From Candidatus Poribacteria bacterium (GTDB lineage Bacteria; Poribacteria; WGA-4E; WGA-3G): a stretch of 64,000 bases of DNA. The stretch lies in contig CBDANF010000003.1 of assembly GCA_965197475.1 (NCBI GenBank), positions 4,103,389 to 4,167,388 of the forward strand, written 5' to 3'. The translations under genes and the position numbers were made by a program. A model generated the notes under the pieces. It saw only the letters and a list, made by a program, of their open reading frames with translations, searched no databases and was not told where the DNA came from. Of the stretch, positions 1,025-12,318 are shown in pieces. Each line of letters opens with the position of its first letter. Positions within the stretch are counted from its first letter, which is position 1.

Positions 1025-4000
1025 TTATTCCTCAACCGTTTCAGAAACCGTTTCAGATTCAGAAATCGGTTCGGGCAGTGCTTCCGGTTCCGGATTGGCA
1101 ATTGCGTCACGGGACACTTCAAGTTCGTGCCACTCAGAGAAACCGGTACCTGCGGGGATGAGGCGTCCAAGAATCACGTTCTCCTTTAGACCTATAAGCA
1201 TGTCTGTTTGCCCTTCAACAGCGGCATCAGTGAGAACTTTCGGGGTCTGCTGGAAACTAGCTGCAGAGATGAAACTATCGGTGCTGAGCGATGCTTTGCT
1301 GATACTCTGCAAGACGGGTTCACCTGTTGCTGGGGTACCGCCTTCTTGCGCAACGCGCCTGTTTTCGACGTGGAACCTATGTCGGGTGACTTCATCATTC
1401 GCGTAGAACGCAGTGTCACCAACAGATAGAATGCGTATCTTTTGAAGCATTTGCCGTACAATAACCTCAACATGCTTGTCGTTGATCGTGTTGGTCCCAT
1501 AGACCGCCTGGACCTCATCAACGAGGTATGTCCAAAGTGCTTCTTCACCTTCAAGGGAATGCCCATTAAGGGTAGTCCTCCCGATAGCGAGGATATCGTG
1601 TGGATTTAGGTATCCATCGGTTAAAGGTTGCCCTGCTTTGACCCAATCGCCATCATCAACGCGGCGTTTCTCATCGGGAATAGAATATAGACGACTTTTG
1701 GTAGCACCATCTACGATTCGGTATTGGGGCACCCCAGCCTTCTGCCCAGTGAGTTGCACGTACCCACCAATTTCAGCAATTTCAGCAGCGTCTTCGCGCT
1801 TGGGGCGACGTGCTTCAAAGAGTTCTGTCACACGCGGGATACCTACCACGATATCAAGGTTCGTGGTTTTTTCGTGCAATTCCGCTAACGGATGCTGTGC
1901 GGTCACTTTCTGTCCGTCTTTGACAGAGACAGAGTATCCTGCGGGAATAAGGTGCGACACGCGCCCACCACCGGGGATGTCAATGTCAATACGGAAAGTT
2001 TCGATTAGACCATCAACATCAACGCCAGTATATTGTTCAAGTGCAGTGGCGTACTCCCAATCTTTCAGCTCTTGACCAACAGAAAGTGTGCAGTTCGGAT
2101 GCGTTACCTTTGTCACTTGATAGGTATTCTTTGAAGTGGCTGCCGATTCTTTTTTATAGTCCGCATCACTGAGGATGATACCTACAGTAACCTCAGTTTC
2201 GGTTGAGTTGACATTCGTCACCTTATATACACGTTCAGTATCAAAGCCTTTGTAGAGCCGTTGTGCACGTTTATACTCAGTTTCGTCAATCTGCTGTCCA
2301 GCAGTGAACGGACAATCGGCATGATGAACTGCAAGGACATGATACATCAGTTTTACGTCAGGTAGCGGTGTATCGGTCTCCCGGTGCTGTTTAACGAGTA
2401 CCTTGTAGTCCGTTTCTGCCATAACTTCTTCAGTTTCAGCACCTTCAGGAACGTGTAGGTAAAGTTTCTCGAAGTCAAACCCTTTAAAGTTACGCCGTAA
2501 ACGATTCGACTCAGATTGTGTGATGAGTTCATCTACAGCAATAGGGAAGTCGGGATGGTGTGAGGCTGCGATACGATAGAGGCGTTCAACATTAAATGCC
2601 CCTTCATTTTTAGCGACATTAACCTCAAATCCTGGATATACCTTCAACACCGCTTTTTTCTCATTTTCGGTGAGCAGGGTTTCTTCGGGTTCTAACTTAC
2701 AATCGGGATGGTGAACAGCAGTTATCCGGTATTTGAGCCGTTCTGCAGTAACGCCACTGAATTTCTCTCGAAGTGCCTCTAAGTTTTCGATTTCAATGAG
2801 TTCTCCAGGCTTTAGCGGACACTCTGGGTGCCTTACCTGTATGACGCGACACACAGGCGTTGATGGGCGTTGCACATCAAATGCTTTATGCATCTCTTGT
2901 GCGCGGCGGAATTCTGTAGCAGTCAATTCTTGCTTCTCAGTTAAGTCAATACCATCACTGACTTCTGTTACGGTATACACTGGGTCACCGAGCTCCAGAT
3001 GATATTGGCTCTCTTCTTCCGGTGTGAGTAGTTTTCCTTCCTTATATGGGCAGCGCGCGGGCGTTACTGTCTGAATTTGATACTTCATCTTCGCAGTAAC
3101 ACTGTTCTGCCGTCGGAGATATTCACCTTCGGTGAGAATAGCACCTTTTTCCGTTTGATACACCCATTCACCATCAAACGGTCGGATTTCTGTACGCCAT
3201 GCTTCAGCCTCACTTTCCGTCAACAGTGTTCCTTCCTTCAACGAAGTTTCCGGATGTTTTACACTTTCCACACGATAATGTGGTTCAGAGCATCGGAACA
3301 ACGAATACTGTTGGGAGTACTTGACGTACTCATGCTCAGTGAGATACTGCCTCTCTTGCAACGGAGAGCCTTCTCCAGCGTTCGCCTCAATAACATCCAT
3401 GCGGTTAATTTTGGCAACTTCGTAGGTGATCAGTTCCACCTCAAAACCAGGATAACGTTCAAGATTCTCTTGATACTGTTTTTCAGTAAGAAGTTCTTCG
3501 GGTTGCAGCTTACATTCAGGATGTTGGACGGTTTTGACCTTATATTTAGGTTGGTCAAGGTGTTCAGCAATCTGTTGTGCAATCCAGAGTCCGTCTTTTT
3601 CATGGACGGTGCGTGTGGGAATGAAATCACGAAACCGCACGGTCCCTGCAGCTTTGGCAAGAATCTTACGCGCGAGGTGTTCACTCATATCTTCAACCGC
3701 ACCGCCAGTATGGAAGGTACGCATCGTCAATTGGGTGCCGGGTTCGCCAATGGACTGCGCTGCGATAATACCGATAGCTTCTCCAACATTCGCGAGGTGT
3801 CCTGATGTCAAATCAGCACCGTAGCACGCAGCGCAGGTGCCTTTCTCCGCCTCACAAGTCAACACAGAGCGAACTCGAACGCTGGAAACGTCTTCCTCTT
3901 CAATTTTATCAGCGTCTTGGGGGGTAAGAAGTGTTCCTTCGTCAATCCTCCACAAACGCTCAGATTCTAATCCCTTCCACACCTTGTTTTGGATTTTCCA

Positions 4001-7000
4001 CTCTTCTGGAGTGAGCTCTTCATCTATCTTCGGAGATTCATAGTCATTACGCGCTTTCTGATATTCAGCATCGGAAATGATATCACCAACCTTCAACGAA
4101 CATTCTGAATTGTTGACTTCAGTGATCTTCCAGAAGGAATCAGCTTTTAGACCTTTCCATCTGTCACTGTGGGTTTTCCACTCTTTTGGAGTGAGTTGGT
4201 CACCTACCTTCACAGGACATTGTTCACTTTTTAATCCTTTCCATTTGTCACTGTGGGTTTTCCACTCTTTTGGAGTGAGTTGGTCACCTACCTTCACAGG
4301 ACATTGATAATCCTTAAGTGCCTTCTGATACTCAGCATCGGAAATGAGATCGTCCTTCTTATGCGGACACTCTGAATGAATGACTTTGGTGATCTTCCAG
4401 AAGAGATCAGCGTTTAGCCCCTTCCACGTCTCACTGTGGGTTTTCCACTCTTTTGGAGTGAGTTGGTCACCTACCTTCACAGGACATTGATAATCCTTAA
4501 GTGCCTTCTGATACTCAGCATCAGATATAACCTCTTTTTTCTTCAACGTACACTCAAGATTGTTGACTTCAGTGATACACCAAAAGTGCTCGGCTTCAAG
4601 CCCCTTCCACGCCTTGCTATACTTCCTCCATTCTTTCGGAGTGAGTTCGGCACCTACCTTTAGCGAATATTTTTCAAGGATTTGATCACATTCACCTTCA
4701 GTTATCAGTTCACTGACCTTGCGTAGACACTCTGGATTGTTGACCTCGGTGATTTCCAAGGATACATCGGGGCGAATACTAGGATACTTTTCGTAAAATT
4801 TTTCCCAATCTGCTTCGGTTTGACTCCCACCCTTACTAGTAGATATGGATTTTTTAGCATCTTCCACAGCGGCTAAGAGTTTCTCTTTAACCTCATCAGA
4901 GTTTTCACCAGGCCAATCTTCTCCTGATATATGTAATATTTTCCATCCTAATTCTTCAAGTTCTTGCTGCTTTTTGCTATCTTTCACTTTTCTCTCATGT
5001 TCATCGTGGTCAGGACCGTCACATTCTATACCGATCCAGTACTCACCTTGTTTGTCAGCATTTACAGCGATGTCAATTAGGCGGTAATCATTAGGCCCAT
5101 CTGGAGTATCAATTTTAACCTGAGAAGTAACTTCATATCCACTGTCTGAAAGGAACTGATAGACTTCCTTCTCAAAAGACGAATGAAAATGAGAAAGTTC
5201 CGTAAAAGGCACCTTTTTCGCAGCAATAGGATCAGAGAGTGCAGTCACCTTGTAGTGCTCATCCTCCCCTTTGATGGGATAATCTGGTATTTCGGTCACC
5301 TTGTAGTGGTCCATTTGACCTATAATACCATCAACACCATCGGGTACCTTAGTTACCTTTATAATGGTATCGGGGACTTCGGTAACTTTGTAATGATCTT
5401 CTTGACCTATGATTCCATCAGATACTTCGGTCACCACGTACACAACACGCCCCTGAATATTGGGCACTGTGTTTGCATCGTAGTGTTCAATAGAAAACTT
5501 GATAGGATCCACAATAACACGCCCACTAATTTTGAATCCTATGGATCCTGCATCTGTGGTGAACTTAAGGACACCGTGCGTTGTGCCGCAGTCATCTTCG
5601 GAAATCATAACATCTTGCGCGACATCAACCAATTTCCGTGTGAGATATCCAGAGGCCGCAGTTTTCATCGCGGTATCTACCAATCCTTTACGTGAACCGT
5701 AGGTTGACGTAAAGTAGTCAAGCACATCCAAACCTTCCCGATAGGAAGATTGAATCGGCGTGGGCAAAATTTCACCGCTCTGCCTTGACTTCAATCCAAC
5801 GATCGCGCTGATTTGCCTGAAAGGATTTGGACGTGCACGTGCGCCACTATCTGCCATTATATAGACAGGACTAAAACCTTCTACTTCTTTATCTTGTTCA
5901 ACCAAATAGGTTTTAGTTTCTGGAAGAGCGGTGAACAGTGCCTTCTCAATTTTTGTGACAGCGTCATACCATATCCGAATCTTCTCGTTCTCTAATTCCT
6001 CCGCCTCAAGATTTTCCTGCTCATTGAGACGTTCAATTTGTTTACTTGCTTTAGCAAGGATGTCGGTTTTGTCAAGGGGAATCAGGTAGTCCTGTATCCC
6101 GGGAGAGATTCCGCTGCGAGTTGCGTACTCAAAGCTAAGCTTCTGTAACCGATCTAACAAGGATACAGTTTCTGCGGTTCCAAGTTCGTTGAAACAACGT
6201 TTAACAAGGTGTGACAAACGCTTGCCACGTGCTTCCTCATTGAAAAACGGCAATTCAAGTCCTGTTATCTCATCTTTCCAAGCGAGTGAGGCGGTACCGT
6301 TCATCCGTGGAAGCACCTCATTGAAAATAATACGTCCGACGGTCGTAAGGATAGGTTCGCGATGTTCTTTGAAAAAGAGTAGAACCGAATCATGCAGTTT
6401 TAGCGTGCCACAACCTTGTGCGTGTGTCACCTCATCCACAGATGTAAAGCGGCGTTTTGCCCACGGTTCACTTTCTAATGTCGCAAATATGCTGTCTTTT
6501 TCTACGGATTCCGATTTTTCTGTGTATGCAGCGTGGAGTAGTTCTGCCCGTTCTTGATGTTCTGGTAGTACCTTTGTAAGAAAACTCGCGCCTAAAATCA
6601 TATCAAGTTCCGGCACCGTAATCGGTTCCCCGTGAGAAGGCTTAAGAATATTACCACTACTGAGCAGTAACATTTTAGCTTCTGTGCGCGCTTCAATAGA
6701 CAAAGGAACATGAACTGCCATCTGGTCACCATCAAAATCAGCATTGAACGCCTTACAGACGAGCGGTGGAATCCGAATCGATTTACCCTCAACGAGTACC
6801 GGCATAAACGCCTGAATCCCGAGTCGATGGAGCGTCGGTGGACGATTTAATAACACCGGGTGGTCAGCGATAACTTCCTCTAATGCTTCCCAGACAGGTG
6901 AGTCCGGTGTAACGTGTTCGGTTAGGTGCTTCCCACGTTTGATAGTCTGTACTTCTCCAGATGCCAAAAGTTTTTCAATAATGAATGGCTTGAACAGTTC

Positions 7001-8173
7001 AACAGCCATTAATTTGGGTAACCCACACTGATGAAGTTCCAATTCGGGACCGACAACAATCACACTTCTGCCGGAATAGTCAACACGTTTTCCAAGAAGG
7101 TTTTGCCGGAAACGCCCGACTTTACCTTTGAGGATATCGGACAAGGATTTGAGCGCGCGTTTGCCAGGTCCAGTAACGCGGCGTCCGTGTCTGCCGTTAT
7201 CCAAAAAAGCATCAACGGATTCCTGAAGCATCCGTTTTTCATTTCGAAGGATGACTTCCGGTGAACGGAGGTCAATAAGCTTTTGCAGACGGTTGTTTCG
7301 GTTAATGACGCGACGATACAGATCGTTGAGGTCGCTTGTTGCAAATCTACCACCTTCCAGAGAGACTAACGGGCGGAGGTCAGGGCTAATCACAGGCAGC
7401 ACATCAAGAATCATCCAATCAGGATGCATGTCTGCCTTATCAAACCCTGCTACCATCTTGAGCTGTTTTGAAAGTTTAACTTTTTTCTGGTGGCTTGAAG
7501 TTTCCTCAAGTTCCTGCTTGAATTTTTCGACATCTTCAGGCAGATCAATTTTGCGCAGCAGTTCCTGAATTGCCTCAGCACCCGTTCCTGCTCGGAAGGA
7601 GTCTGGATGCTCGCGCAGTTTAGCGTTCACGTCCGTCTCTGTGAGAATATCTTTTTCCGCCACCCCACAACTGTCATCAATGACTTCTGTGACAATGAAC
7701 GCTTCAAAATAGAGAACCCGCTCAACTTGGCGGGATGCGAGTTCGAGAAATGTTCCAAGCCTCGACGGGATTCCCTTGAAAAACCATATATGGGAGACTG
7801 GCGTGGCGAGTTTGATATAACCGAGTCGTTCTCGTCGTACTTGTGATTTTGTTACTTCAACTCCACACTGGTCACAGATAAGACCTTTGTGCTTAATCCG
7901 CTTGTACTTACCGCAACTGCACTCAAAATCCTTCTGCGGTCCAAACGTGGCTTCACAAAATAAACCTTGATGTTCAGGGCGAAAACTGCGGTAGTTAATC
8001 GTTTCTGCCTTTTTGATTTCACCGCAATCACAAGTGCCTTTCTCGGGACACGTCCATGCATCATTCGCTGGATTCCGCCGCTTACAAGATGTCCGTTTTG
8101 CCCAATCTTTTATCTGATCAGGCGATGCGATACTGATAGAGATACGATTAAATCGATTTTCTTTGTCTGCCAT
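1025..8173 (-). CDS. rpoC: DNA-directed RNA polymerase beta' subunit, unusually long (2382 aa) with two large insertions
   Basis: Zn finger CSCGKYK..CDQCG, GKRVDYSGRSVI, catalytic NADFDGDQMAVH, bridge helix KTAASGYLTRKLVDVAQD, trigger loop GEPGTQLTMRTFH, C-terminal GLKENVILGRLIPAGTG. Confidence 0.98.
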   Translation of the reverse strand: MADKENRFNRISISIASPDQIKDWAKRTSCKRRNPANDAWTCPEKGTCDCGEIKKAETINYRSFRPEHQGLFCEATFGPQKDFECSCGKYKRIKHKGLICDQCGVEVTKSQVRRERLGYIKLATPVSHIWFFKGIPSRLGTFLELASRQVERVLYFEAFIVTEVIDDSCGVAEKDILTETDVNAKLREHPDSFRAGTGAEAIQELLRKIDLPEDVEKFKQELEETSSHQKKVKLSKQLKMVAGFDKADMHPDWMILDVLPVISPDLRPLVSLEGGRFATSDLNDLYRRVINRNNRLQKLIDLRSPEVILRNEKRMLQESVDAFLDNGRHGRRVTGPGKRALKSLSDILKGKVGRFRQNLLGKRVDYSGRSVIVVGPELELHQCGLPKLMAVELFKPFIIEKLLASGEVQTIKRGKHLTEHVTPDSPVWEALEEVIADHPVLLNRPPTLHRLGIQAFMPVLVEGKSIRIPPLVCKAFNADFDGDQMAVHVPLSIEARTEAKMLLLSSGNILKPSHGEPITVPELDMILGASFLTKVLPEHQERAELLHAAYTEKSESVEKDSIFATLESEPWAKRRFTSVDEVTHAQGCGTLKLHDSVLLFFKEHREPILTTVGRIIFNEVLPRMNGTASLAWKDEITGLELPFFNEEARGKRLSHLVKRCFNELGTAETVSLLDRLQKLSFEYATRSGISPGIQDYLIPLDKTDILAKASKQIERLNEQENLEAEELENEKIRIWYDAVTKIEKALFTALPETKTYLVEQDKEVEGFSPVYIMADSGARARPNPFRQISAIVGLKSRQSGEILPTPIQSSYREGLDVLDYFTSTYGSRKGLVDTAMKTAASGYLTRKLVDVAQDVMISEDDCGTTHGVLKFTTDAGSIGFKISGRVIVDPIKFSIEHYDANTVPNIQGRVVYVVTEVSDGIIGQEDHYKVTEVPDTIIKVTKVPDGVDGIIGQMDHYKVTEIPDYPIKGEDEHYKVTALSDPIAAKKVPFTELSHFHSSFEKEVYQFLSDSGYEVTSQVKIDTPDGPNDYRLIDIAVNADKQGEYWIGIECDGPDHDEHERKVKDSKKQQELEELGWKILHISGEDWPGENSDEVKEKLLAAVEDAKKSISTSKGGSQTEADWEKFYEKYPSIRPDVSLEITEVNNPECLRKVSELITEGECDQILEKYSLKVGAELTPKEWRKYSKAWKGLEAEHFWCITEVNNLECTLKKKEVISDAEYQKALKDYQCPVKVGDQLTPKEWKTHSETWKGLNADLFWKITKVIHSECPHKKDDLISDAEYQKALKDYQCPVKVGDQLTPKEWKTHSDKWKGLKSEQCPVKVGDQLTPKEWKTHSDRWKGLKADSFWKITEVNNSECSLKVGDIISDAEYQKARNDYESPKIDEELTPEEWKIQNKVWKGLESERLWRIDEGTLLTPQDADKIEEEDVSSVRVRSVLTCEAEKGTCAACYGADLTSGHLANVGEAIGIIAAQSIGEPGTQLTMRTFHTGGAVEDMSEHLARKILAKAAGTVRFRDFIPTRTVHEKDGLWIAQQIAEHLDQPKYKVKTVQHPECKLQPEELLTEKQYQENLERYPGFEVELITYEVAKINRMDVIEANAGEGSPLQERQYLTEHEYVKYSQQYSLFRCSEPHYRVESVKHPETSLKEGTLLTESEAEAWRTEIRPFDGEWVYQTEKGAILTEGEYLRRQNSVTAKMKYQIQTVTPARCPYKEGKLLTPEEESQYHLELGDPVYTVTEVSDGIDLTEKQELTATEFRRAQEMHKAFDVQRPSTPVCRVIQVRHPECPLKPGELIEIENLEALREKFSGVTAERLKYRITAVHHPDCKLEPEETLLTENEKKAVLKVYPGFEVNVAKNEGAFNVERLYRIAASHHPDFPIAVDELITQSESNRLRRNFKGFDFEKLYLHVPEGAETEEVMAETDYKVLVKQHRETDTPLPDVKLMYHVLAVHHADCPFTAGQQIDETEYKRAQRLYKGFDTERVYKVTNVNSTETEVTVGIILSDADYKKESAATSKNTYQVTKVTHPNCTLSVGQELKDWEYATALEQYTGVDVDGLIETFRIDIDIPGGGRVSHLIPAGYSVSVKDGQKVTAQHPLAELHEKTTNLDIVVGIPRVTELFEARRPKREDAAEIAEIGGYVQLTGQKAGVPQYRIVDGATKSRLYSIPDEKRRVDDGDWVKAGQPLTDGYLNPHDILAIGRTTLNGHSLEGEEALWTYLVDEVQAVYGTNTINDKHVEVIVRQMLQKIRILSVGDTAFYANDEVTRHRFHVENRRVAQEGGTPATGEPVLQSISKASLSTDSFISAASFQQTPKVLTDAAVEGQTDMLIGLKENVILGRLIPAGTGFSEWHELEVSRDAIANPEPEALPEPISESETVSETVEE
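4150..4530 (-). repeat. Near-identical in-frame direct repeats in rpoC insertion 1
   Basis: ccactcttttggagtgagttggtcacctaccttcacaggacattg occurs three times, offsets 84 and 183 bp (CPVKVGDQLTPKEWKTHS x3). Confidence 0.9.
4860..5195 (-). other. Vsr/DUF559/MTES_1575-like PD-(D/E)XK nuclease domain embedded in frame in rpoC
   Basis: SSFEKEVYQFL..GYEVTSQV..LIDIAV..GIECDGPDH..D..QQELEELGWKILHISGEDW matches the family pattern as I recall it. Confidence 0.8.
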
Positions 8174-8295: not shown

Positions 8296-11200
8296 CTATT
8301 CGGTATCGTCGGTGTTCCATGCCAGTTTTAGGGGTGGTTCCTCATCTATGGGTTCCGTTGTATCCAACGTGTGTAAGAGTGGAAAGCCAACATCATGGAA
8401 GGCTGTCTGATCTAAGTCGGCATCCGCGGGGTCGCCTTCAGATAACTCAACATTTAAGCCGAGGCTCTGCAGTTCTCTCACCAACACGTTGAAAGATTCA
8501 GGGGTGCCAGGTTTCATGGGACTTTGACCTTTCACAATAGACTCATAGATTTTAGTCCTACCTTTCACATCGTCCGATTTGATAGTCAACATCTCTTGCA
8601 GTGTGTGTGCTGCACCATAAGCTTCCAATGCCCATACTTCCATCTCACCGAGTCGTTGGCCGCCATGTTGTGCTTTACCGCCAAGCGGTTGCTGCGTTAC
8701 CAAGGAGTAAGGACCTGTTGAACGCGCATGCATCTTATCTGCAACGAGGTGATTCAATTTGAGGAAATAGACATAACCGACTGTCACCTCTTGTCCGAAC
8801 GGTTCTCCGGTCCGTCCGTCATAAAGAACACTTTTGCCGGTCTGTTTAACGTTTTTGGGTAAATCCGTTTTCGCCAATATGTCAAACACCTCTTCTTCCG
8901 TAGCACCGTCAAATACGGGTGAGGAAATGTGCAAACCGAGTTCCTTGCATGCCAAGCCTAAATGTATCTCAAGGATTTGCCCGACATTCATCCGAGAAGG
9001 CACACCGAGTGGATTTAATACAATATCAACAGGGGTGCCATCCGGTAGGTATGGCATATCTTCTTCAGGTAAAATCTTAGCGACAACACCTTTGTTTCCG
9101 TAGCGTCCCGCCATTTTATCGCCGACGGAGATAGGACGGCGGCTTGCCACATAAACTTTGACAAGTTTCAAAACGCCCGGTTTCAATTCTTCACCTGCAG
9201 CAAGTTTCTCTAACGCCGCATTTTTTTCCTCTGTGTAGGCATTCATGCGGCCGGTAGCAAGTTCTTGAAGACTTTTGATATAAGATGTTGCATCTGTATC
9301 TGTAATCTGAAGGGCTTCAAGCTTGCTTTGCGACAGTGTATCCAGATATTCACGCGTCACCACGTCACCTGCTTGCAGCTGCTGTGGTGATTCAGCATTT
9401 TCTCCATCTTCAGTCTCATTATCATTTTCGAAAGTTGTTGGATACGCAAGCTCTTTGTTAATCAAAGTCTCGCGCAATTCTTCCGTCAGACGTTCAGAAA
9501 CTTGTTTACACTGTTCTTTCCACGTTTGCTCAACTTGTTTGCGGAGTGCCTCTTGTCGCCATGCGGTTTGCTCGCTATTCGAGGTAGTTTGGCGAGAGAA
9601 TACTTTTACATCAATGACAACCCCTTCTACACCAGGACGGGTATAAGCAGAAGCATCCTTGACTTCCTTGACTTTTTCACCGAAAATCGCGCGTAGCAGT
9701 TTCTCTTCCGGACCATATTCACTTTCCCCTTTCGGTGAAATTTTTCCAACCAGAATACTACCGGTTCCCACAACACTTCCAACCCGAATAATGCCCTCGT
9801 CATCAAGTTGTGCCAAACTGCGGGAGGACATGTTTGGAATATCACGGGTGATCTCTTCGTCCCCCATCTTTGTCTGCCTCGCCGTGACTTCGAATTCCTC
9901 AATATGGATAGAGGTAAATGTGTCGTTCTTGATAAGCGAGTCACTGATGAGGATGGAGTCCTCAAAGTTATGACCTCCCCACGGCATATAGGCGCAGAGT
10001 ACGTTTCTACCGAGAGCGAGTTCACCGCCTTCAGTAGCGGTGCCATCGGCAATGACATCACCAGCTTCAACAACATCTCCGATATTCACGCGTGGCCGCT
10101 GATGGATACAGGTCCCACTGTTGCTCCGTTTGAAGTTTTTCAGTTTGTAGACATCGTAACCCATCTCACTGAAAGCATGCTCACCTTCCTCAACATGAAG
10201 TGCTTGTCCAGTGCGAATCAGGATCTCCTCCGCATCAAGGCTTGAAACGACACCACCTCGGTGCGCGATGATCATGGCATTGGCATCCCGTGCAGCGCGG
10301 TGCTCCATACCAGTGCCTACCCACGGTGCTTCTGGACAGATTAGCGGAACTGCTTGACGTTGGTGGTTAGCACCCATGAGGGCACGGTTAGCATCTTCAT
10401 GCTCTAAAAAAGGCACAAGTGCAGCGGAAACACCGACAATCTGTTGCGGAGCAATACCGATGTAGTCAATGTCAGCAAGACTGCGCTCAATCACCTCTTC
10501 ACCTTTGCGGGTACGAAGGGTTTTTGACTTGTTACGGGAAGATATAGCATCTGCAGGAGCAATGTGATATTTGTCCTCTGCATCTGCTGTGAGATATTTT
10601 ACATCTTTGGTGATTTTACCGTTACGGACCACACGGTAAGGTGTTTCTAAAAATCCGTACGGATTAACACGTGCAAACGTCGCCAAGGAAACGATAAGAC
10701 CGATAGAGGGACCTTCAGGCGTTTCTAAGGGACAGACACGTCCATAATGCGTACGATGCACGTCTCTCACCGCTGCAGTGGCACGGTCACGATGCAGACC
10801 GCCGGGACCAATTGCCGAGATACGCCGTTTATGAGTAAGTTCATCCAACGGGTTAATCTGTTGCATGAACTGGGAGAGTTGGTTAGACCCGAAAAACTCT
10901 CGAAGTGCCATCATGAGTGGCTTTGGATTCACCAAATTCTTAGGGTTTTTCAGCTGGGCATCGCTAGTAGTGCTAAGTTTTTCCCGTGTTGCTCTACGCA
11001 TCTGCAGCAGTGCAATACGGAATTGATTCTCAAGAAGTTCTCCGATTACCCGTACCCGTCGATTCCCGAGATGGTCTAAATCATCTACCGTTCTGTGCCC
11101 GTTTCGGATGTGCATCAGATGTTGCAAGGTAGCGGCAATATCTTCTTTCCGCAGCACCCGCATATCTTCTGATGGCATATCACTAGATTCATCAAGATAG

Positions 11201-12318
11201 ACAGATAGATCACTGAGTTGTGAATTGAGTTTGTATCTTCCGACAGTGCCTAAATCGTAACGTGCACCGTCAAAAAAGAGACGTTCCAAACAAGCTGAGG
11301 CCGCTTCGCGTGTCGGGGCATCGCCTGGTCGCAAGGTGCGGAAGATCTCAAGTAATGCCCCTTCTTGCAGTGTGCCTCCCGCATAAGCCTTCACCGTATC
11401 ACGCGAAAGGGTATTCCGCAAATAACGAAGTTCTTGCTCATCAGATTCAACCAGCACTTCTACTTCTGACACCTTAGCTTCAATGAGTCGATCAAACTCT
11501 ATCTCAGACAACTTTGTGTTTGCTTCAAGCAGAACTTCGCCAGAATCCGGATGGGCGACAGGCTCGGCGATAACTCGCCCAACAACGTCCTGCTTCATCG
11601 GAACGACCTCCGTGCTGCTGAAAAGTTTCAGGATATCCGCGTCCGTTTCCCAACCGAGCGCACGTAAGAGCACGGTGGCTAATAGTTTTTTCTTCCGGTC
11701 TAACCGGACGTGGATGCAGTCCTTTGAATCATATTCAAACTCTATCCAGGCACCTCGGTAAGGGATAATCTGACCTGTTGGGAGTTTCTGTGCACTTGCT
11801 GCAGATTTGTCAAGAAAAATTACACCTGGAGACCGCTGTAACTGATTAACAATCACGCGTTCGGAGCCGTTGATAATAAACGTTCCATTTTCAGTCATTA
11901 AAGGGATATCGCCAAGATAGACATCAGATTCTGTGATGTCTAAAACACGCGTCTGACCTGTGTCTTCATCCTTTTCGCGTTCAACGCACATCAGACGGGC
12001 TTGTACCCGTACCTGATAGTTGAGACCACGGGATTGGCAATCTGAAAGATCATGTGTTGGTGGACTGAGCGTGTAGCTGACGAATTCAAGACTTGTCGTC
12101 TCTTTAAAGTCATAAATCGGAAAAACTTCCTTGAACAATGCCTGAAGCCCTTTCAACTCGCGTTCATTTTCTTCAACAAAACGTTGCAGAAATGCGGTGT
12201 AAGATCGCTTTTGGGTCTCAATTAAATCAGGCAAATCAAGAACTGAAGGGGTTTTGGCAAAGGAGACACGCTGTCGTAACGCTGCCGAACTTCCATTACT
12301 TTTATTTATATCGGGCAT
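8296..12318 (-). CDS. rpoB: DNA-directed RNA polymerase beta subunit
   Basis: [60 protein letters not shown] motifs. Confidence 0.98.
   Translation of the reverse strand: [1340 protein letters not shown]

Follow-up and report, generated by a model that had tools for sequence, protein, structure and literature searches.

Where a bacterial RNA polymerase carries a very large insertion in its trigger loop, the catalytic element that moves in all cellular RNA polymerases, the obvious question is what that insertion is built of and where its bricks came from. We addressed this question for the rpoC gene, encoding the beta' subunit, in a 64,000-nucleotide (nt) stretch of a Candidatus Poribacteria bacterium genome (contig CBDANF010000003.1, positions 4,103,389 to 4,167,388), hereafter the window. 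The insertion is a lineage-specific trigger-loop insertion (SI3/beta'i6) of one Poribacteria family. We consider it likely that it is a family-specific SI3 in which a split sandwich-barrel hybrid motif (SBHM) hosts some 13 paralogues of a small domain of the same subunit, the "small left claw" (sLC), that these paralogues came from the protein's own sLC copy beta'-bD2, and that the whole acts as an SI3-like modulator.

The insertion lies between the TFHxGG and D[IV]xxG[LI]PRV motifs, i.e., at the SI3/beta'i6 site, and the original prediction, made from the DNA letters alone, that 615 amino acids (aa) separate TFHTGG from DIVVGIPRV proved exact (nt 1856-3700). The gene that carries it is the only full rpoC copy in the 5.7-Mb assembly. 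A Pfam scan of beta' found no intein or Hint family, and a reading as an intein removed by protein splicing was dropped for that reason; nor did the scan find a nuclease domain in the window's trigger-loop array.

The interior of the insertion is a tandem array. Self-BLAST gives long off-diagonal alignments (e.g., aa 1544-2054 against 1259-1852, 85 bits), which confirm the presence of repeats and also extend toward aa 1105-1410, in a second insertion of the same protein (insertion 1). The interior, aa 1544-2056, can be divided into 13 units of 26-51 aa each, with the consensus YxVxxVxHPxxxLxxGxxLTExEYxxxxxxxxxF. In a leave-one-out test, each unit was scored with a hidden Markov model (HMM) of the remaining 12 and compared with 2000 shuffles; nine of the 13 units were robust (0/2000 shuffles), three were marginal (units 2, 4 and 12) and unit 10 was visible in the structural model only. 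That model, made with AlphaFold2 for aa 1480-2125 (646 residues) with 36 homologues, has a mean predicted local distance difference test (pLDDT) score of 83.0 and a predicted template modelling (pTM) score of 0.50. It displays a strand-loop-short strand-helix-strand element 13 times, with one helix of about 10 residues per unit and one more in the long loop of unit 2. The earlier count of about 13 diverged repeats of ~40 aa is thus reproduced by the fold model, while sequence alone backs only some 9-12 of the copies.

What is the unit? In a search of 177,635 distinct PDB sequences with a profile made from the window's 13 units, 16 of the 25 rows at E<=10 were beta' chains, and the top nine were all beta' and all fell on one site, residues ~139-186 (best E-values 4e-4, 5.1e-4 and 1.4e-3). 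The repeat profile does find the clamp region of standard RpoC, as the original proposal required. A larger profile of 98 units from twelve genomes was aligned by hhalign with a 63-sequence family alignment of beta' from which the trigger-loop insertion had been excised. It selected the native segment at aa 159-195 as its first site (Prob 94.4%, P 9.4e-8, 36/36 columns); the second site in beta' was aa 888-910, in the native BEAN-type module (P 0.062). The strongest independent evidence for homology between unit and native segment is provided by sister families that lack the array. The native segment of their beta' scores 24-38 bits; with an HMM made from the window only, four of five loci give 24.4-32.3 bits and the fifth 8.0 bits, as the sole real match in each rpoC open reading frame (ORF). 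Their segment reads ..V.DP.CPLKVKQLLTEEEY......FP.GF.., which is nearly the unit consensus, and the pattern C-P-L-K-V...LLTE.EY is common to both. The native segment of nine distant beta' proteins of the window's own family (P0071-P0076, P0080, P0082 and P0091) scores 22-32 bits.

The structural comparison leads to the same domain type. Unit 7 of the model superposes on native beta' with a root-mean-square deviation of 1.1 A over 40 residues and 15-25% identity, at E. coli 1262-1306, Thermus 1377-1421, M. tuberculosis 1163-1207 and B. subtilis 1076-1120. According to the text of PMC11515920 (Alvarez-Carreno et al. 2024), beta'-bD2 (139-177 / 142-181) and beta'-bD7 (1060-1103 / 1255-1298) are homologous (CATH 3.30.60.280), and sLC is the name given there to this domain. 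Since the sequence match of the units falls on bD2 and the fold match of unit 7 on bD7, sLC-type module is the most fitting name for the unit. It is no new fold and corresponds to the sLC domain as named in that source.

The two ends of the insertion tell a different story from its interior. Residues just after the trigger-loop arm align in sequence with the start of the proteobacterial SI3, and the last ~80 aa with E. coli beta' 1086-1163, which bears out the suggestion that the ends form one SBHM. The structural superposition on SBHM involves only ~87 residues, all at these two ends. A fold homologous to E. coli SI3 is therefore present, but SBHM repeats do not run throughout: 513 of the 615 residues are the 13 helix-containing alpha/beta units, and only the two ends of the insertion model as conventional SBHM. 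Because the ends are SBHM by alignment, the array is nested inside one SBHM.

The distribution of this architecture is sharply bounded. Our sample of the phylum comprised 121 genomes: the window's own, 81 of the same family (f1) and 39 of seven other families (f2-f8). The array was matched in 79 of the 81 family genomes and in none of the 39. A search with the insertion only returned 92 proteins, 90 of them beta' and two beta; the names borne by homologues point to Candidatus Poribacteria. The 68 closest beta' have insertions of 613-630 aa, more distant family members insertions of 635-1345 aa. Against two relatives, the ratio of nonsynonymous to synonymous substitution rates (dN/dS) is 0.10-0.11 for the array and 0.07-0.11 for the flanking core. 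The array evolves under purifying selection, and its length has stayed nearly constant. Four sister loci (families f2 and f3) have an ordinary SI3 of two SBHM-like domains, 193-212 aa long. The fifth, L022 (family f4), has a trigger-loop insertion of 369 aa with an extra, apparently helical, low-complexity segment inside the second SBHM, a layout which suggests that this SBHM is a recurrent insertion spot.

Coordinates of all features are collected in Table 1. The rpoB gene (nt 8296-12318) lies directly upstream of rpoC.

Table 1. Features of the window's rpoC gene and of its two unit-bearing insertions (nt, position in the window; aa, residue of beta').
Feature	Position (nt)	Strand	Description
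rpoC (beta')	1025-8173	(-)	2382-aa ORF; all five Pfam Rpb1 domains and the NCBIfam rpoC equivalog match
Native beta' segment (beta'-bD2, sLC), unit paralogue	7589-7699	(-)	aa 159-195; profile, hhalign and HMM matches
Insertion 1, second unit-bearing site	3881-5581	(-)	aa 865-1431, 567 aa; splits native BEAN-type module of beta'
REase_MTES_1575 domain (PD-(D/E)xK-like) in insertion 1	4871-5176	(-)	aa 1000-1101; Pfam E 1.5e-18
TFHTGG, N-terminal-side conserved motif	3701-3718	(-)	aa 1486-1491; alignable to solved beta' chains
Trigger-loop insertion	1856-3700	(-)	aa 1492-2106, 615 aa; 70.5 kDa, pI 5.4 (acidic)
N-terminal part of split SBHM and linker	3545-3700	(-)	aa 1492-1543
Array of 13 sLC-like units	2006-3544	(-)	aa 1544-2056; 513 aa
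Unit 1	3425-3544	(-)	aa 1544-1583; 42.1 bits, 0/2000 shuffles
Unit 2	3278-3424	(-)	aa 1584-1632; extra loop and helix; 10.9 bits, 1/2000 shuffles
Unit 3	3161-3277	(-)	aa 1633-1671; 28.3 bits, 0/2000 shuffles
Unit 4, truncated, weak	3083-3160	(-)	aa 1672-1697; 6.1 bits, 10/2000 shuffles; helix in model
Unit 5	2978-3082	(-)	aa 1698-1732; 11.0 bits, 0/2000 shuffles
Unit 6	2852-2977	(-)	aa 1733-1774; 15.4 bits, 0/2000 shuffles
Unit 7	2732-2851	(-)	aa 1775-1814; 22.9 bits, 0/2000 shuffles; superposes on native beta'-bD7
Unit 8	2579-2731	(-)	aa 1815-1865; 40.0 bits, 0/2000 shuffles
Unit 9	2462-2578	(-)	aa 1866-1904; 22.9 bits, 0/2000 shuffles
Unit 10, degenerate, model-only	2345-2461	(-)	aa 1905-1943; 1.4 bits, 214/2000 shuffles; strand-helix-strand
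Unit 11	2228-2344	(-)	aa 1944-1982; 44.0 bits, 0/2000 shuffles
Unit 12	2123-2227	(-)	aa 1983-2017; 7.9 bits, 3/2000 shuffles
Unit 13	2006-2122	(-)	aa 2018-2056; 37.9 bits, 0/2000 shuffles
C-terminal part of split SBHM	1856-2005	(-)	aa 2057-2106; structural superposition and alignment to E. coli beta' 1086-1163
DIVVGIPRV, C-terminal-side conserved motif	1829-1855	(-)	aa 2107-2115; sequence alignment to solved beta' chains

Units are not confined to the trigger loop. Insertion 1 gives four unit matches of 13-22 bits plus weaker ones at aa 1140-1421, and in a six-frame unit-profile search of the window's genome all 17 matches fall in rpoC, divided between the trigger-loop array (nine) and insertion 1 (eight), so that the earlier claim of an expansion at two sites holds. 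The DNA of insertion 1 contains tandem repeats at nt 4000-4660 (periods 84, 183 and 267; 76-96% identity), which point to a probable recent duplication; no DNA-level tandem repeats were found in nt 1856-3700. Relatives with a beta' of about 1860-1880 aa, some 500 aa shorter, appear to lack insertion 1, judging from the forms of 2200-2400 aa and the consensus. The nuclease region of insertion 1 is matched by two further ORFs of the same genome, outside the window (G000:C3:667497-667817 and 353328-353777, in ORFs of 1852 and 1594 aa; E 5e-15 and 3e-10), and is related, according to NCBIfam, to C-terminal portions of ProA and Hhe, which are anti-phage proteins.

Beyond this genome, a search of 1.84 billion representative proteins with the unit profile yields only 35 matches at E<=1e-3. 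Nine of these have RNA polymerase Pfam domains, three have TPR and three REase_MTES_1575, the remainder being mostly short pieces without a Pfam family. Five are non-polymerase proteins with one to five units (P0268, P0270, P0279, P0281 and P0293): three of them have a restriction-endonuclease-like N-terminal region together with units, a coiled coil and TPR repeats, and one is a 199-aa REase_MTES_1575 protein in which the nuclease domain is followed by a unit. In P0280, a beta' of 2029 aa, the native bD2 segment and the helices that follow it appear in tandem about seven times before the conserved region resumes at ~aa 900; its native region differs in sequence from those of Poribacteria. Two Poribacteria RpoB proteins, P0092 (1984 aa) and P0093 (1743 aa), have units in tandem with the native module of beta-i4 (aa 234-348) and a further set close to the C terminus, and in P0092 a stretch rich in Cys and His and HNH-like by eye only lies at ~aa 540-600, between the unit arrays. 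The window's own RpoB (1340 aa) has neither units nor such a stretch.

Three other accounts of the array must be weighed against these data. That it is simply a conventional SI3 of SBHM repeats, whose strands would produce the ~40-aa periodicity as a by-product, is what one would expect from the published view that SI3 is composed of such repeats (as stated in parts of PMC10895346 and of bioRxiv 10.1101/2021.01.27.428476), and the insertion ends are true SBHM. However, the superposition stops at those ends, each unit has its ~10-residue helix in a model of pLDDT 83, and the unit profile matches beta'-bD2, not SI3, which leaves this account with hardly any credibility. A closer competitor is the BEAN/BBM2 family, the module of beta-i4, from which the units could have been recruited instead of from beta'-bD2. 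The BEAN/BBM2 module has the same order of secondary-structure elements as the unit and supplies the second-best hhalign site in beta'. The best hhalign site in RpoB is likewise the native beta-i4 module (aa 264-280, P 0.033), which can be aligned to the E. coli beta2-beta-i4 crystal chain 3lti_A, and in P0092 this native module forms a tandem series with units. Yet neither P value is significant, whereas the same run gave 9.4e-8 for beta'-bD2. Among the structural matches listed, neither an E. coli beta chain nor 3lti appears, and the TGD/E motif of beta BEAN domains, as given in PMC11515920, is missing from the units. BBM2 had been our first guess and found no support in those hhalign values; we now regard it as very unlikely. 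A premise that went with it, that a Thermus beta' insert is a BBM2 array, was wrong, beta'i2 being described in PMC2939025 as SBHM repeats.

The third account concerns how the array arose and whether it does anything. It could be the domesticated or neutral remnant of selfish cassettes, each a nuclease with flanking units, that colonise this family's RNA polymerase genes in frame; it would persist for being harmless in a surface loop and not for any tuning of transcription. Units do adjoin nuclease domains: REase_MTES_1575 is found in insertion 1 and, in the relative P0260, at aa 1328-1421, inside a trigger-loop insertion spanning 982-1949. The HNH-like stretch of P0092 lies between unit arrays, the free-standing proteins P0268, P0270 and P0293 join a nuclease-like N terminus or MTES_1575 with units, and the DNA tandem repeats of insertion 1 would represent ongoing duplication. 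The window's trigger-loop array, however, has neither a nuclease nor such repeats, and its constant length in the closest relatives, its dN/dS equal to that of the flanking core and its presence in nearly the whole family speak against this account. The enzyme is, moreover, essential and single-copy, and the array sits in the catalytic element that moves most. We think this account unlikely. A bolder variant, which we hold to be equally improbable, makes the sLC-like module the vehicle of an intein-less, in-frame mobile system. Nucleases (REase_MTES_1575, HNH) flanked by modules would invade RNA polymerase genes wherever a native copy of the small module offers homology or a loop is tolerant; candidate sites would be the trigger loop, the BEAN domain and beta'-bD2 in beta', and beta-i4 and the C-terminal part in beta. 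The trigger-loop array would then be the fixed, domesticated product of many invasions, serving now as a cyanobacteria-like SI3 arm in a lineage without Gre or DksA.

The reading that we favor, a split SBHM hosting duplicated sLC modules, is as follows. One SBHM (called HABAS in PMC11515920) is split open and hosts the tandem array of about 13 strand-loop-strand-helix-strand modules, paralogues of a domain native to every bacterial beta' (beta'-bD2 at ~140-180, with beta'-bD7 as its C-terminal counterpart). The array would have arisen in an ancestor of the family by duplication of the gene's own beta'-bD2 segment, which we infer to be its most likely origin. The intragenic duplication proposed originally is supported: matches to the unit profile are very rare among representative proteins, those in the window's genome all lie in rpoC, and the unit consensus has the C-P-L-K-V...LLTE.EY pattern in common with the native segment of sister families. 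The direction of descent, from native segment to array, is the part that we can only suggest. Since the array is tethered to both trigger-loop arms, it must move as the loop folds, and this surface-exposed acidic appendage of 70 kDa would be displaced at each folding and unfolding. E. coli SI3 and its cyanobacterial counterpart Si3 modulate catalysis, pausing and cleavage (PMC10895346, PMC2939025); by analogy, the array would act as a modulator of trigger-loop folding and so tune catalysis, pausing and intrinsic RNA cleavage.

The array may follow the surface of the enzyme close to its secondary channel. In the order containing the family no Gre or DksA is detectable, and therefore nothing needs access to that channel. 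GreA_GreB_N was found in none of the 121 phylum genomes (a control search was positive in nine well-known genomes), and the GreA C-terminal domain exceeded its cut-off in a single case, within a frame of 1346 aa. None of 117 genomes of f1-f5 (116 sampled and the window's own) has the DksA zinc finger, against four of four in f6-f8. Cyanobacterial Si3 has been linked to the absence of Gre and DksA (PMC10895346), and Poribacteria may, on the basis of these domain searches, resemble cyanobacteria in lacking secondary-channel factors.

Several observations weigh against the favored reading or limit it. The 98-unit profile is weaker against PDB than the 13-unit profile (best E 0.068), its top three rows still being beta' at ~139-186, and a Foldseek search of PDB with models of 646 and 207 residues gave no match at E<=0.001. 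The window's own native segment scores just 5.1 bits (aa 169-191), so that the likeness to the clamp segment claimed originally is strong at the level of the family and weak within the protein itself. Unit 10 has no sequence support (214/2000 shuffles) and unit 4 is weak (10/2000), and the pTM of 0.50 limits what the model says about the overall shape of the array and its contacts with the enzyme. The role in pausing and catalysis is argued by analogy only, from the E. coli and cyanobacterial SI3. Finally, sister families whose SI3 is an ordinary one of ~200 aa lack Gre and DksA too. The loss of these factors is therefore no more than a permissive background, not a specific correlate of the array, and we dropped the idea that it is an array-specific trait.

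What is new here is the identity of the repeat unit and its likely origin, the split-SBHM frame, the distribution at family level and the selection test. Together they suggest a second route to a giant SI3, taken independently: the brick is a copied stretch from the N-terminal region of the enzyme itself, and purifying selection has maintained the result across an entire family of uncultivated bacteria, both sponge-associated and free-living. The case offers a natural comparison for the effects of such appendages on pausing, fidelity and secondary-channel access, and the in-frame nuclease domains in the same gene family raise the question of how such insertions spread. We found no earlier description of a trigger-loop insertion made of a split SBHM and an sLC array; older catalogues (Lane & Darst 2010, Iyer et al. 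2004) may bear on its novelty.

How does this insertion compare with known systems? SI3/beta'i6 of E. coli has 188 aa and consists of two SBHMs (PDB 2AUK). Here, by contrast, there is just one SBHM, interrupted by 513 aa of modules that are not SBHM, in an insertion over three times that size. As far as the text of PMC10895346, PMC11515920 and PMC2939025 goes, bacterial trigger-loop insertions are built of SBHM domains only, and where PMC11515920 deals with trigger-loop (beta'-uD5) insertions it describes them as HABAS/SBHM only. That source does report rare lineage-specific sLC insertions in beta', within beta'-bD2, bD4, bD5 and bD7; these are other sites, and it reports no tandem array of 13, whereas here 13 units sit in the trigger loop. 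The word "Poribacteria" has no occurrence in its main text or its xlsx supplement. The closest parallel in size is cyanobacterial Si3, which has 645 aa in eight nested SBHMs and is called the largest known in PMC10895346; the trigger-loop insertions of our family, 615 aa in the window, reach 1345 aa in relatives and so exceed it. Both have domains nested in an SBHM and occur in lineages without Gre or DksA. Unlike in cyanobacteria, however, the brick is sLC-like, the origin apparently independent and the beta' gene unsplit, and the Poribacteria sister families with an ordinary SI3 lack Gre and DksA as well. The beta-i4 insertion of beta, with one to six tandem BBM2 (BEAN) modules as described in PMC2939025, offers the other parallel: in both cases a small alpha/beta module native to the polymerase has been amplified in tandem at a surface site, though in another subunit, at another site and, as far as hhalign can test it (P 0.033), from another module family.

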